A stretch of 64,000 nucleotides of DNA from Candidatus Latescibacterota bacterium (GCA_965116885.1 OZ220741.1:4864001-4928000), one strand, 5' to 3'. Counted from the first letter of the stretch, positions 2,155 through 7,397 are shown. Made by a program: numbers and translations. The notes: generated by a model not told the origin, from the sequence alone.

Positions 2155-2193
2155 AAAAAAGAGCGGCAGGTTGCAAAAACCCACCGCTCTTTT
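2155..2193 (-). terminator. Rho-independent terminator ending the ECF/TPR/mini-RNAP unit
   Basis: Stem AAAAGAGCGG/CCGCTCTTTT followed by a T-run on the minus strand, about 20 nt after the stop at 2214. Confidence 0.8.
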
Positions 2194-2213
2194 GCGCTTC
2201 CAAGCTTCCTTTT

Positions 2214-5200
2214 TTAATCGTCTATCGGCAACCCCACAAATAATCGACTGTATTCATCTGTCAATGGATCGCGCTCGCCCTTTTGCGCTGCGCGGGCAAA
2301 TACCACACCCGGCTTTTCCGACCTGCGCGCCCGCGCCAAAACGCCATATCCACCTGGCGCACTCTGCGTTTCCAGATCGCTCTGAATCGCCAGCATCTCC
2401 GCCAGCGCATTGGCCAAACCCCAGCGCGCACCAATCGCCCGCGCAAAAAGCTCCTCTGGCGTCAGCCCCTCTCGAAAACCGTGCTTCAAGGGCGTAAATC
2501 CACCCTGGTCATTCCGCGTCACGCCCTGGGGAGCCACATAAAGTCTAACCTGCTGCCAATTGGCACGCGCACCACATGCCACCAGAAGCGCGGGAATCCC
2601 GAGATCATCGTCGTCATATTCGCGAAACTGCGCCAACACAGCCGACACCTCATCGGGATAATCGCGCCAGACATCTGGGTCATCGCCCTCTGGCGGATCG
2701 GGCCAATCGCGCGACGAACCGATAAACGCACTCATCGACGCACCTGTCTTGCGCGTAGCATCAAAACCCCGATCCCACAATCGCGCAGATAGATCCAATG
2801 CCGCCTTCGAGCCATCGCGCGCCATTGCAGCCGCCATCCAGTCCATCACCTGATACTTATCGACAAATAACCCCTTTCGCTCAACCTCATCGCCGACAAT
2901 CTCCGCAATCTCCTGCAACCCCTCGTCCGTCATACTCATATACGCCAGGCCAAACAGCGCGTCGTGCATCGGGTGTACCTTCTCCCGTGCAATCAGCCCT
3001 GGATCCCGATTTAAGTGAGCTACTGCCGACAGATGTTCTTCAGCCGACCGCTGTCCCTCTTCAGTCACCGGCACAAAAATCGCCACCTGATCGCCATCAA
3101 AATCCATATTCATCATCTTGCAAATCGCCACACTCACGCGCACAGCATCGCCTTTCACGCGTACCGGACGACACGCCACAAAAGCCATTGGCGAAAACGC
3201 GGGATTGCGAAGCACCACAGTCCATAACTCAGCCATAGCCGCATCCAGCGCTTTCTCCGCTTTTTTTGACCGCCTATCCACTTCTTCAGTCCCCACCTCT
3301 CGCGCGGCAAACGGCCCAAACAACGTCCACGCCATCTCTTCGGGCACACCGACCTGATCGTATCGCAATTCAGGTGCAGGCACAGCCACTGAACGCCCGC
3401 TGAACAACGCGCGCGCCTGAAATTGCAAACGCGACAACTCGCAAAATGCGCGAACTCGCTCAGACAGCGTCTCGACCACACGATCCACCAATATATCTGG
3501 CGCGCCATTGGCAATCATCTCACTCAAGCGGTTGTTGGCCTCTCGCAATTCTCGGGGCACATCTCTCCCACTCACATGAGTCAACGAATGCCCCGGCAAC
3601 CACGGATGCGGAACCGAACGCGCAAGCGCGACATCCCCACTGCGCTTCAACGAAAACTCGATGCCGCGTTCATCCAGTTCAACAGCCACCCCACCTTTTG
3701 ACAAATGCCCAATTAGCTCATCAAACTGAGGGGAAGGCGCATTAGGAGTAACAGGTCCCGCAACGACGCGGTCAGATAGAGTATCGGCATCATCTCGATC
3801 TACCGCGCACGTATTGAACAAATCGCCAATCACCCCAAAAGCACCCGCTTCTCGCAACGCCAAAAACTCTGTCTCGCCCAACCCCTGGCTTCGCTGATCT
3901 AATTTTACACTTCCGGGAACGGCTTGGCGAAGATCTGCGGCGGTTTGACCTAACTCTCGATCTCGTTTCCCCAGCTTCACACCAGCCTGAATTTTATCCG
4001 CCGCCAAATGCACCGTGCGTCCCCAATACACCCACCCTACAGTGGTGCGACGCGGCAGCGTATCCCCATTTAGCGTCAACGCCTCCATACCGTCTTCTGC
4101 CAGCTCTAAACCTTTCAAACGAGCGCGTATCTCATCGTCTTTTGGCGCATTGAGCGCGGGAATAATAACCGGCTCCCCCTCGGCCTTTGCAATGCGCCCG
4201 ACCACAGCTTCGCGTACCTGTCCAATATTCAACCGCGACGGCAAACCACACACACTTACAATAAGCTCCACAGGCGTGCCATCCGGCAATTTGGGCATAT
4301 CCTCATCTCGCAAAATGCGCGACACCACCCCTTTAAAACCGTGTCGATTACTCAGCTTATCACCCGGCGCAACGCGATTGGGCAACATCATCCGGTTCGC
4401 CGCGGATTCGCTGATCACAACTGCGTCTTCATGTGTATCTCCATTCCACGCCATAAACGCGGTCAGCAAATTGTACCCCGTCCAGAAATGCGGATCGCGC
4501 GGTTCACACCCCGTTTGCACCAGCGCGGGTTCCGACTCCAAGACGGGTTTGAAACCCGTCTCTACATTGCCGTCATATTGCGCGTGATACGCGTGCCACG
4601 CGCCCTGTTCATCGCGCTGCATATCGGGACTCGGCGCGCCAATCCACTGCCGCATCATATTCACGCCCATCAAAACGCGATTGGTATCATTGTGTTCCAA
4701 AAACGGAACCACCGAAGCGCCTATCCCCAACCGCTTTTCAGGTGCATCGTCTTCAATCACCAGCTTGCCATCGCGAATAGTTGCCCCCTGAGCCACCTCT
4801 AAAATCCGCGCGAGATTCGGTCCCTCGGGCGTGCAATATGGACACACGCGCCCATCGTGCGACGGATGATAGCAATTCTCTATCCCCTCATCGGCCTCAC
4901 CGATAATTGGGATCAACGTCACCCGCCGCAAATGAACGTACATATCCTGCAAATTGGTCGCCTGCAAAGACTGTGATGTGGGTTCTTCCATAAAAAATGT
5001 GTGAATCCAATCCCCCAACGGCAACCATGTTTCAACGGCATCTCCCAGCATCTCTGGCATATTTTCCAACCGCTCGGCAATATAATCGCGCAATTGCTCC
5101 CCTACACACCGAATCTCAGCCCGCGCCAAATCCACATCAGTCGGCACGGGAACCACCGTTAAAAAAAAGCCATCTACCTTAAACCGTCCCCAATCGTCGG

Positions 5201-5393
5201 ACTGAGGGATATCTTTGTACACAACCTCTTGTCCCCCCTGAATCGCGAGATGCAATTCACAGGTATATTCATCCACCGACACCACCCGATACCCCGCCAG
5301 CGACACCCGATCTGTCAACAATTCGGGCAACTTCTTTTGAATAAACGCATCCCACGAAATTTTATGCCACGGCGCCTTAACTGAAAGACTCAT
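2214..5393 (-). CDS. Miniature single-chain RNA polymerase-like protein (RpoB core blocks fused to RpoC core blocks), ~1059 aa
   Basis: RpoB-like motifs: [107 protein letters not shown]. RpoC-like motifs: [58 protein letters not shown] at 5393 follows a GAGAGGAG RBS. Confidence 0.92.
4541..4565 (-). repeat. GTAG-type REP-like palindrome inside the coding sequence
   Basis: Minus strand GTAG-AGACGGGTTT-C-AAACCCGTCT, a perfect 10-bp stem. Confidence 0.55.
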
Positions 5394-5465
5394 CAAATTT
5401 CTCCTCTCTATGTTAAAAGACACTTCTCAGAGAACTGTATCGCTCTTCTGCCTGGTGTCATTTTT

Positions 5466-6642: not shown

Positions 6643-7236
6643 TTACCCCCTCCCATACCTCCGCCCCCATGCCTCTGCGAGTTGCTTGCGCGCGTGGAAC
6701 AGCCGCGACTTCACCGTACCTTCTGGAATCGCCAGCCGTTCGGCAACTTCTCGAAGCGCCACCTCATCTTCGTACACCATCTGAAATATCTCGCGTTTTT
6801 CCTCTGGCAACGCATCGATCAACGCCTGCAAAATGCGCCGTTGTTCAGCGCGTTCCAACTGCACATCGGGTCCCAGCGCAGCCCGATCGATCATCCACCC
6901 TGGAACGGGTTGTTCTTCGTCCTCCTCATCGTAAAGCGAAGGCATTTCCAGAGGCTGTTCGCGACGGCGACTTTGGCTTCGCAATTGATTCAGCGACAAA
7001 TTTCTCGCAATCCGAAACAGCCATCCCCGAAAAGACCCTTGCCCCGACCATTGATCGGCCCGATTCCAAACTCTGAGAAAAACCTCCTGTGTCAAATCAT
7101 CTGCAGCGACCGGATCCCGCGTTATCCAACGCAGACTCTCGGCCACCTGTGCCTGGTAGCGCGCAAACAGAATCGCAAAAGCCTCTTGATCCCGCGCCAC
7201 AATTCGCTGCATCAAAATCGCGTCCGATGGTGTCAA
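6643..7236 (-). CDS. ECF-type RNA polymerase sigma factor (sigma70 group 4)
   Basis: ADDLTQEVFLRVW and FRGWLFRIARN (region 2); LREVAERLAIPEGTVKSRLFHARKQL (region 4); probable TTG start at 7236 after AGGAGG. Confidence 0.95.
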   Translation of the reverse strand: MTPSDAILMQRIVARDQEAFAILFARYQAQVAESLRWITRDPVAADDLTQEVFLRVWNRADQWSGQGSFRGWLFRIARNLSLNQLRSQSRRREQPLEMPSLYDEEDEEQPVPGWMIDRAALGPDVQLERAEQRRILQALIDALPEEKREIFQMVYEDEVALREVAERLAIPEGTVKSRLFHARKQLAEAWGRRYGRG

Positions 7237-7256
7237 AAAATATCCTCCTGTGGGAA

Positions 7257-7284
7257 TCGACACCGCCCAATGCCCGAAGGTTCA
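7257..7284 (-). promoter_or_regulatory. Putative ECF-dependent autoregulatory promoter
   Basis: TGAACC (7279-7284), 17-nt spacer, GTCGA (7257-7261), directly upstream of the sigma RBS; fits the generic ECF AAC/GTC pattern. Confidence 0.7.
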
Positions 7285-7367
7285 AAAAAAGTGTGATCCG
7301 CAGATGAATGCAGATGAAAAAGGTGTGAAGGACCTGATCTCCGCCAGCGGTGCGTCCACCCAGATAT

Positions 7368-7397
7368 AAAAAAGCGCAGTCCTGTGAGACTGCGCTT
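7368..7397 (-). terminator. Rho-independent terminator
   Basis: AAGCGCAGTC-loop-GACTGCGCTT followed by a T-run on the minus strand, downstream of the stop at 7430. Confidence 0.85.

Follow-up and report, generated by a model that had tools for sequence, protein, structure and literature searches.

A conserved pair of an ECF-type sigma factor and a predicted single-chain minimal RNA polymerase in Candidatus Latescibacterota

Can a bacterium, an organism taught to have one RNA polymerase (RNAP) core, carry a second and far smaller polymerase with a sigma factor of its own? The question is raised by a locus in a 64,000-nucleotide stretch of a Candidatus Latescibacterota genome (GCA_965116885.1 OZ220741.1:4864001-4928000; hereafter the window), on the minus strand of which three co-oriented open reading frames (ORFs) encode an extracytoplasmic function (ECF)-type sigma factor (P0001), a tetratricopeptide repeat (TPR)-like protein (P0002) and a single-chain protein related to both large subunits of RNAP (P0003, here termed mini-RNAP). 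The original prediction, made from the sequence, had taken the three genes for a self-contained operon encoding either a sigma-plus-mini-core holoenzyme or a polymerase mimic that holds the sigma factor as an anti-sigma or decoy. Our analysis points to a smaller conserved unit, consisting of a dedicated ECF-type sigma factor and what is predicted, from sequence comparison, to be a single-chain minimal DNA-dependent RNAP built of fused and pruned beta and beta′ subunits.

A pruned beta–beta′ fusion and its sigma factor

The mini-RNAP passes three Pfam models, Rpb2_6 (134 bits), Rpb1_2 (57.8 bits) and Rpb2_3 (21.7 bits), and stays well short of the equivalog cut-offs for the ordinary subunits, scoring 170.1 bits against 801 for rpoB (TIGR02013) and 113 bits against 963.5 for rpoC (TIGR02386). 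Ordinary rpoB (1254 aa) and rpoC (1367 aa) genes are also present, ~335 kb away, in this genome, a single contig of 5.56 Mb that holds one mini-RNAP only. The mini-RNAP start codon, ATG 5393, stands behind GAGAGGAG; an in-frame GTG upstream at 5423 would give a protein of 1069 aa.

The family profile was compared with the genome's own subunits by profile–profile alignment (hhalign). Residues 44–559 of the mini-RNAP align with beta 338–1252 (E 7e-45) and residues 625–1008 with beta′ 265–766 (E 1.2e-30), giving 501 alignable columns of beta and 385 of beta′, the clamp helices among the retained. What is kept comprises the fork region, both barrels, the bridge-helix region and the beta′ clamp helices. 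What is missing comprises the beta lobes, the beta flap and beta′ 1–264, with its N-terminal clamp and zinc region, as well as ~24 residues following the clamp helices, the rudder region; the excised beta segment at ~769–1028 is the flap inserted in the beta barrel. Of beta 1–337 there is a short N-terminal segment at most, its local match to beta 30–50 being equalled by 1 of 500 shuffles, and past the bridge helix the mini-RNAP has no match to beta′. The conserved C-terminal 60 residues were considered as a first trigger helix and rejected (local alignment score 27, equalled by 413 of 500 shuffles).

Within the parts that remain, the catalytic residues are conserved. In 19, and again in 28, mini-RNAP sequences, the beta-like residues G354, D355, N359, R360, H361, G362, K364 and G365 are invariant, as is the metal-binding DFDGD motif, and K356 is nearly so. 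According to the accessible part of its description, the two-barrel RNAP superfamily is defined by a DxDxD metal-binding motif together with conserved basic residues in the other barrel (PMC7824862). The mini-RNAP carries this signature in the form of DFDGD and of the invariant K364 and nearly invariant K356. Purifying selection is evident over the whole protein, with ratios of nonsynonymous to synonymous rates (dN/dS) of 0.08–0.19.

Two further segments characterise the protein. Sigma region 2 docks mainly on the beta′ clamp helices, and this site is found in the mini-RNAP by alignment as well as in the predicted structure, where it forms a helical hairpin (helices 624–638 and 643–660; predicted local distance difference test, pLDDT, 85–90) with N630, R632, P642 and L645 invariant among the 19 sequences. 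Immediately ahead of it, at the junction of the two halves, lies a family-specific linker mini-domain (residues 575–620), modelled as four beta strands (pLDDT ~83–90) with H606, P607 and W608 invariant in the same sequences; it gave no hhalign alignment to the genome's own beta or beta′.

Searches of structure and system databases placed the protein no nearer to anything else. Foldseek of the full-length model returned bacterial beta′ chains at a template-modelling (TM) score of ~0.15, the solved structures searched held none closer than ordinary beta and beta′, and the PHROGs matches were families of unknown function and families labelled 'RNA polymerase beta subunit'. In PADLOC-DB v2, 0 defence families were matched by the mini-RNAP or the TPR-like protein, and the sigma factor gave only marginal helix-turn-helix-type matches (E 0.001).

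The sigma factor is an ECF-type protein comprising regions 2 and 4 only, with Sigma70_r2 at E 1.8e-18 (66.5 bits), Sigma70_r4_2 at E 9e-15 (54.5 bits) and a TIGR02937 score of 122.5 bits against a cut-off of 42.9; it reaches the cut-off of none of the named equivalog models. TTG 7236, with AGGAGGA (7249–7243) standing 7 nt ahead, is the likely start, because the alternative GTG 7263 (6643–7263, 206 aa) falls within the −10 box of the promoter. A family-specific linker motif, P-x-W-(M/L/F)-(I/V)-(D/E), is unique within the genome, and its P and W are invariant in 28 orthologs. Sigma orthologs are 43–99% identical, as against ≤33% for the 10 other sigma paralogs of this genome, and dN/dS values of 0.09–0.22 indicate purifying selection here too.

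Table 1. Features of the locus in window coordinates.
Feature	Position	Strand	Details
Intrinsic terminator of the preceding gene (7430–8377), upstream border	7371..7398	-	12-pair stem + T-tract
ECF-type promoter TGAACC-N14-GGTGTC	7259..7284	-	−35 at 7284–7279, 14-nt spacer, −10 at 7264–7259
ECF-type sigma factor P0001, 197 aa from TTG 7236	6643..7236	-	Sigma70_r2 + Sigma70_r4_2
Accessory TPR-like all-helical repeat protein P0002, 381 aa	5466..6611	-	Insert between sigma and mini-RNAP
Single-chain mini-RNAP P0003, predicted pruned beta–beta′ fusion, 1059 aa from ATG 5393	2214..5393	-	Rpb2_3, Rpb2_6, Rpb1_2
Flap deletion site, P0003 340–353	4365..4406	-	14 residues vs ~260 in own beta (~769–1028); BLAST, hhalign
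Beta active-site motif GDK..NRHG.KG, P0003 354–365	4329..4364	-	Sequence alignment
Linker mini-domain at beta/beta′ junction, P0003 575–620	3564..3701	-	Family-specific, invariant H-P-W
Beta′ clamp helices, P0003 621–662	3438..3563	-	Aligns with own beta′ 263–300
Catalytic Mg-binding motif DFDGD, P0003 774–778	3090..3104	-	Invariant in 19 and in 28 sequences
Intrinsic terminator, downstream border	2157..2193	-	16-pair stem + T-tract

Joint inheritance, promoter and variable slot

Proteins of the mini-RNAP family carry only 'hypothetical' annotation. A word-indexed search with the mini-RNAP returned 576 proteins at E ≤0.001, many of the best 120 being ~1000–1070 aa long, and an exhaustive search had roughly a hundred 50%-identity clusters of ~1000–1100 aa among its best 150. 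Genomes were counted at E ≤1e-60 for the mini-RNAP and E ≤1e-25 for the sigma factor. On this basis the mini-RNAP occurs in 65 of 168 genomes of the window's phylum, including all 20 other genomes of its genus, where it occupies the syntenic site, in 30 of 151 sampled genomes of the Poribacteria phylum group, and in 3 of 301 sampled genomes of the Caldilineaceae phylum group, although the last figure may be an undercount since two candidates per genome were scored. The sigma–mini-RNAP pair is thus found in three phylum-level groups, in records labelled Latescibacterota, Poribacteria and Caldilineaceae. A first scan of contigs had yielded family members at only 4 of 80 loci, since one of the search patterns also fits canonical rpoB. 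ESM Atlas holds the family in clusters of its own, with 73 and 135 members; further clusters of fused Rpb2_6 + Rpb1_2 proteins in that resource, metagenomic and 1164–1787 aa long, are different families.

The two genes travel together. Linkage of mini-RNAP homologs to an ECF sigma factor had been proposed as a test of the original prediction, and it held in 49 of the 50 genomes examined, where an orthologous sigma gene lies directly upstream. The gap between the two is mostly −40 to +97 nt, with a 4-nt overlap in several loci. In the window's phylum the sigma ortholog is present in 64 of 168 genomes and both genes are present in 62, the sigma gene adjoining the mini-RNAP gene in every case compared. 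Contig edges explain one of the two sigma-only genomes (G156) and one of the three mini-RNAP-only genomes (G149); the other sigma-only case (G021) is a 35% paralog, and the remaining mini-RNAP-only genomes, G143 and G146, are taken up below. One genome (G071) has two modules, and each mini-RNAP has its own adjacent sigma gene. Across 28 loci, pairwise identities of sigma and mini-RNAP correlate at r = 0.93, a value reached by 0 of 2000 permutations, and r is 0.65 in the 333 distant pairs. Sigma and mini-RNAP are therefore inherited together, adjacent and often overlapping, and the distant loci hold no third conserved gene with the pair.

The doubly equipped genome is 8.4 Mb in size; its polymerases (loci L109 and L134) are 46% and 38% identical to that of the window, and the second module has an ISAZ013-type transposase on its downstream side. 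In G263, apparently separate beta-like and beta′-like genes were rejected as a split arrangement, the mini-RNAP being frameshifted exactly at the junction of the two halves (L149, ~6530–6550), which could reflect a pseudogene or a sequencing error. Stop codons inside other mini-RNAP matches were an artefact in the cases checked, where the query began 10 residues early and met the sigma stop codon.

The genomic surroundings of the pair are less constant. Flanking genes differ in the distant loci, with oxidoreductases, TetR and transposases in some, and transposase or recombinase genes lie near L106, L134 and L127. The sigma and mini-RNAP genes are slightly richer in GC (0.55–0.56) than the genome (0.511). 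Searches of 50,697 phage and 72,556 plasmid records turned up no family member at ≥80% coverage, nor was there one among the viral-contig candidates listed, where at least 10 relatives were 22–36% identical over parts; an origin from mobile elements was rejected on these grounds. Parts of all three genes are covered by Logan contigs 90–99% alike, in 4 runs from 4 studies filed as metatranscriptomes and labelled sponge metagenome (3) and coral metagenome (1). Such contigs are silent on transcript starts and ends, strand and level, and because DNA may be present in such libraries they hint only weakly at expression in relatives.

Upstream of the pair stands an equally persistent promoter. The predicted ECF-style promoter was recovered ahead of the sigma gene in 47 of 47 non-duplicate loci: 46 match TGAAC[CT]-N13-14-[GC][GC][TCG]GTC, and the one left over departs from this by a single base of the −10 box. 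In most loci the promoter ends ~20 nt ahead of the sigma start codon. This is more conservation than chance would give, and the arrangement is the typical layout of a positively autoregulated ECF sigma factor; since the promoter is conserved across phyla, the DNA specificity of the sigma factor must be fixed. The strict pattern has 1 match in the 5.56-Mb genome, the sigma promoter itself, where a Markov model expects 1. Of the looser patterns, 'mid' has 23 matches where a Markov-1 simulation has 29, and 'loose' has 13 where the simulation has 19. Among the 21 genomes of the genus there are 29 matches, of which 21 are the sigma promoter (21 of 21 genomes), leaving 8 others against 28 control matches. 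As far as these scans tell, the only clear target of the sigma factor would be its own operon.

Other expectations for the layout of the locus also stood up. The three genes run in the same direction with gaps of 31 nt (6612–6642) and 72 nt (5394–5465), and hairpins with T-tracts lie exactly at the two borders of the unit. A terminator scan found 5 terminator-like sites against 5.6 in shuffles, a count not above chance, among which the border hairpins have the longest stems; inside the unit there is no terminator of comparable strength. An anti-sigma gene of the membrane-bound or zinc-binding type is absent as foreseen, the middle protein being soluble, all-helical and without HxxxCxxC in its sequence (no transmembrane predictor was run), and in most loci the sigma gene directly precedes the mini-RNAP gene and the middle gene is mostly absent. 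An Rfam scan of window positions 1–12000 matched no family, and a repeat search gave nothing notable.

In same-genus loci the upstream terminator hairpin likewise precedes the promoter. The distance from terminator to −35 box (7285–7370 in the window) varies there from ~0 to 130 nt; the region carries short tandem repeats, with units of 7–10 nt, that differ between genomes, and in several of these genomes the T-tract of the terminator directly abuts TGAACC.

One claim of the original prediction, that the unit is a three-gene operon, did not survive the comparison. The TPR-like gene stands beside the module in only 4 of 168 genomes of the phylum, and because it so rarely adjoins the module and also occurs away from it, the conserved unit is sigma plus mini-RNAP. 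Its family is small (57 proteins), is found in 11 of the 168 genomes, and is also found elsewhere, including genomes without the module. Beside the module it lies between the two genes in G000, G079 and G080 and after the polymerase in G010, a distant member of the phylum. The G010 protein (L131 8670–9647, + strand) is a distant relative, 22% identical with a profile E of 3e-88, just after the mini-RNAP, and represents a second, independent juxtaposition. The GC content of the window's TPR-like gene, 0.449, is below that of the genome (0.511) and of its neighbours (0.55–0.56).

As to its nature, P0002 scores below the Pfam TPR cut-offs (TPR_12 16.8 bits vs 30.1, TPR_1 13.6 vs 27.8), while its AlphaFold2 (AF2) model is an all-helical solenoid of helical hairpins (pLDDT 93; predicted TM-score, pTM, 0.88). 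Foldseek matched this model to LGN, OGT and consensus TPR structures with probability 1.00, E values of 2e-6 to 1e-4 and TM-scores up to 0.53–0.57.

We compared the slot between sigma and polymerase across the 21 genomes of the genus. The two genes are directly adjacent in nine; the slot holds an ATP-binding cassette (ABC) exporter of ~597 aa (ABC_membrane + ABC_tran) in seven, P0002 in three, a 560-nt gap without a convincing ORF in one and a ~2-kb gap in one. An ABC exporter of ~590–600 aa in this position (L115 7291–9087, − strand; L119 3333–5093, + strand) was seen in at least 7 genomes of the genus and in one of another genus. The TPR-like gene is thus an accessory, occasional insert in a variable slot and no part of the conserved core. 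A pattern scan found no second copy of the promoter before the polymerase in the 21 genomes, so that an insert probably shares the transcript of the operon.

Weighing the readings of the module

We infer from the sequences, with a probability of roughly 0.5, that the module encodes a sigma-dependent single-chain minimal RNAP on a self-activating operon. Sigma region 2 would bind the retained clamp helices, and this binding would give the mini-RNAP promoter recognition. The two proteins would then transcribe their own operon from TGAACC-N14-GGTGTC in a positive loop, possibly primed by the host holoenzyme carrying this sigma factor, and the gene in the slot, TPR-like here and an ABC exporter in sister genomes, would be expressed along with the module. 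Support for docking is indirect and comes from the selective retention of the hairpin, the unique and invariant linker motif of the sigma factor, and a complex prediction. The holoenzyme envisaged in the original prediction is the best-supported of the readings; the clamp helices are kept, and the complex prediction gave 'weak support'. A bolder form of the proposal, in which a host-core-independent holoenzyme of ~140 kDa would serve one private promoter and transcribe its own genes, with the slot genes as payload, is possible yet doubtful. If true, such a loop would run on while a phage factor or an antibiotic holds up the main RNAP.

Several observations weigh against the sigma-dependent mini-polymerase. 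In normal holoenzymes the beta flap positions sigma region 4; here 14 residues replace the flap, and with it the flap tip on which region 4 docks. A two-box promoter at fixed ECF-like spacing is no less suited to the host core than to the mini-RNAP. No private regulon was visible in the promoter scans of the genome itself and of the 21 genus genomes, and a wider regulon was rejected for lack of promoter enrichment in either set, from which weak or divergent sites would escape. Within one genus of the phylum, the sigma gene and promoter are cleanly deleted in G143 (L144) with the mini-RNAP ORF intact, the sigma gene is frameshifted in G140 (L161) with that ORF still open, and an 837-bp deletion in G146 (L160) takes the sigma gene and ~90 polymerase codons, leaving the rest of the ORF open; with the G263 frameshift, these losses imply that the module is dispensable and sometimes decays. 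The full-length AF2 model of the mini-RNAP is poor (pLDDT 63, pTM 0.45) and, because of this low confidence, was used here only for local secondary structure.

The complex prediction counts on both sides of the balance, its score being rated 'weak support'. It was made with custom alignments and polymerase residues 330–1059 only, and scored 0.53 (runs 0.53, 0.51 and 0.54), while none of 3 controls exceeded 0.00. The runs share at least 25% of contacts, with partner pLDDT of at least 66. Of 157 solved complexes, 116 reach the mark that it passes, as do 2 of 215 mismatched pairs; passing scores ≤0.60 include 18 of those 157 and both of the mismatches. Since sigma–beta′ complexes are among the solved structures, the pass may reflect likeness to them. 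With the flap missing and the promoter of the two-box, ECF-spaced kind, a mixed course of events is plausible, in which the host core with sigma would start the loop and the mini-RNAP with sigma would continue it.

Much of the same evidence could be read as showing a sigma factor that is only a switch, with which the host core turns on the operon for a mini-RNAP acting independently of sigma, for example in making primers or small RNAs on single-stranded, nicked or RNA templates. The canonical promoter architecture at fixed spacing in all 47 loci, the absence of the flap needed to place region 4 and the intact mini-RNAP ORF where sigma is deleted (G143) or frameshifted (G140) all fit such an arrangement, and for the single-chain phage polymerase YonO the need of any factor is left open in the accessible part of the source (PMC5467207). 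We nevertheless consider it unlikely. Regulator–target pairs rarely show cross-phylum adjacency, gene overlap and one-to-one duplication; the clamp helices survive though most of beta′ is deleted; the complex prediction, though weak, exceeds its controls; and an ECF sigma factor with neither an anti-sigma nor a visible regulon beyond its own operon would be unusual.

The other possibility raised by the original prediction, a core mimic whose clamp helices mainly serve to keep hold of sigma, in the manner of an anti-sigma or decoy, until some signal releases it to the host core, would explain why the gene takes the usual position of an anti-sigma gene, with translational coupling, why no other anti-sigma is present at the locus, and why clamp helices and an autoregulated promoter go together. 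It is disfavoured, and we rate it as very unlikely, since DFDGD, the beta lysine motif and the bridge-helix residues are invariant and purifying selection extends over 1000 residues where a 40-residue hairpin alone would suffice for a decoy, and no regulon of a released sigma is visible. Of similarly low likelihood is a decaying relic of the transcription system of a mobile element, without present cellular function. The patchy distribution (65/168, 30/151 and 3/301 genomes), the variable flanks with their nearby transposase or recombinase genes (L106, L134, L127), the sigma loss or frameshift in three genomes of one genus, the frameshifted mini-RNAP of G263 and a GC content slightly above that of the genome (0.55–0.56 vs 0.51) would all suit a relic, whereas presence at the syntenic site in all 20 other genomes of the genus, dN/dS values of ~0.1–0.2 and the lack of family members in phage and plasmid records or among the viral-contig candidates listed speak against one.

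Surroundings, known relatives and significance

Between the sigma operon and the gene next but one upstream lies a 315-aa gene without a Pfam match (7430–8377, − strand), whose 3′ end precedes the module in most same-genus loci and not in distant ones. The product of the gene beyond it (8370–9404, − strand) is 344 aa long and carries at its N-terminus a DksA/TraR C4 zinc finger (Pfam E 3.2e-8), of the kind found in proteins that bind the RNAP secondary channel. Just downstream of the unit, behind its terminator and a sigma-70-like promoter match, sit a BlaI-type repressor (1682–2068, − strand; Penicillinase_R E 7e-31) and a BlaR1-like M56 peptidase with TonB_C domains (3–1682, − strand). Farther upstream (10453–12193, − strand) a 376-aa ORF, in whose translation an SPPY motif typical of N4/N6 DNA methyltransferases can be read, lies beside a 193-aa ORF; the two may form a restriction-modification pair, and a uvrB-like gene (12201–14288) adjoins them. 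Two paralogous ORFs on the + strand (15466–16425 and 16592–17491) have signal-peptide-like N-termini and common motifs, and possibly encode outer-membrane proteins.

Set beside known systems, the module combines familiar parts. The sigma factor has the two domains usual for the ECF type and an ECF-like promoter, and the mini-RNAP is homologous to bacterial beta and beta′, with which it shares catalytic motifs as well as bridge and clamp helices. It departs from the canonical enzyme in having ~1060 aa in one chain, as opposed to ~2600 aa in two, and in lacking the lobes, the flap, the beta′ zinc and N-terminal clamp regions, the rudder and the part that follows the bridge helix. Full-length beta–beta′ fusions (NCBIfam NF011417, NF007172) share with it the order of beta then beta′ in one polypeptide; those models, however, span ~2840–2890 positions and describe the only core enzyme of the cell, whereas the mini-RNAP is a pruned extra copy, scoring 170 bits against cut-offs of 4632 and 5372.

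Closer in size are two single-chain polymerases of mobile elements. YonO of the Bacillus prophage SPbeta is, in the accessible part of its description, a ~100-kDa single chain akin to multisubunit RNAPs from which most accessory domains are gone, and one whose sequence homology to the active centres of multisubunit RNAPs does not extend past a few catalytic residues (PMC5467207). That account sets it apart from the mini-RNAP, which is alignable to beta and beta′ and keeps clamp and bridge helices, and which is chromosomal, with a dedicated sigma factor, where YonO belongs to a prophage. Orf6 of the yeast killer plasmid pGKL2 is likewise a pruned subunit fusion of similar size, a 982-aa Rpb2::Rpb1 protein from which about half of the coding sequence has been deleted; as far as the accessible part of the source describes it, Orf6 differs in its eukaryotic, plasmid lineage, in serving a cytoplasmic linear plasmid and in working without a sigma factor (PMC2919709). 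An 82-kb viral contig (L158) encodes a fused form 22% identical to the mini-RNAP, which is of a different family. A full-text literature search found no paper on a sigma-linked beta–beta′ mini-RNAP, and the main text and one supplement of the ECF reclassification paper do not mention Rpb1, Rpb2 or rpoB. The module is real, conserved and apparently undescribed.

To our knowledge, the single-chain RNAP relatives known so far come from phages or plasmids and have no known sigma factor. The pair described here is instead a chromosomal, vertically kept mini-polymerase of bacterial lineage, with its own sigma factor and a conserved promoter. Candidate purposes are a back-up independent of the host core, a stress-proof expression channel or the synthesis of special RNAs. 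If active, it would be the smallest sigma-dependent RNAP of the multisubunit type and would reveal the parts of beta and beta′ that initiation at a promoter truly requires; it would also offer a compact orthogonal expression system, and would lead one to ask how a cell benefits from a second channel of transcription.

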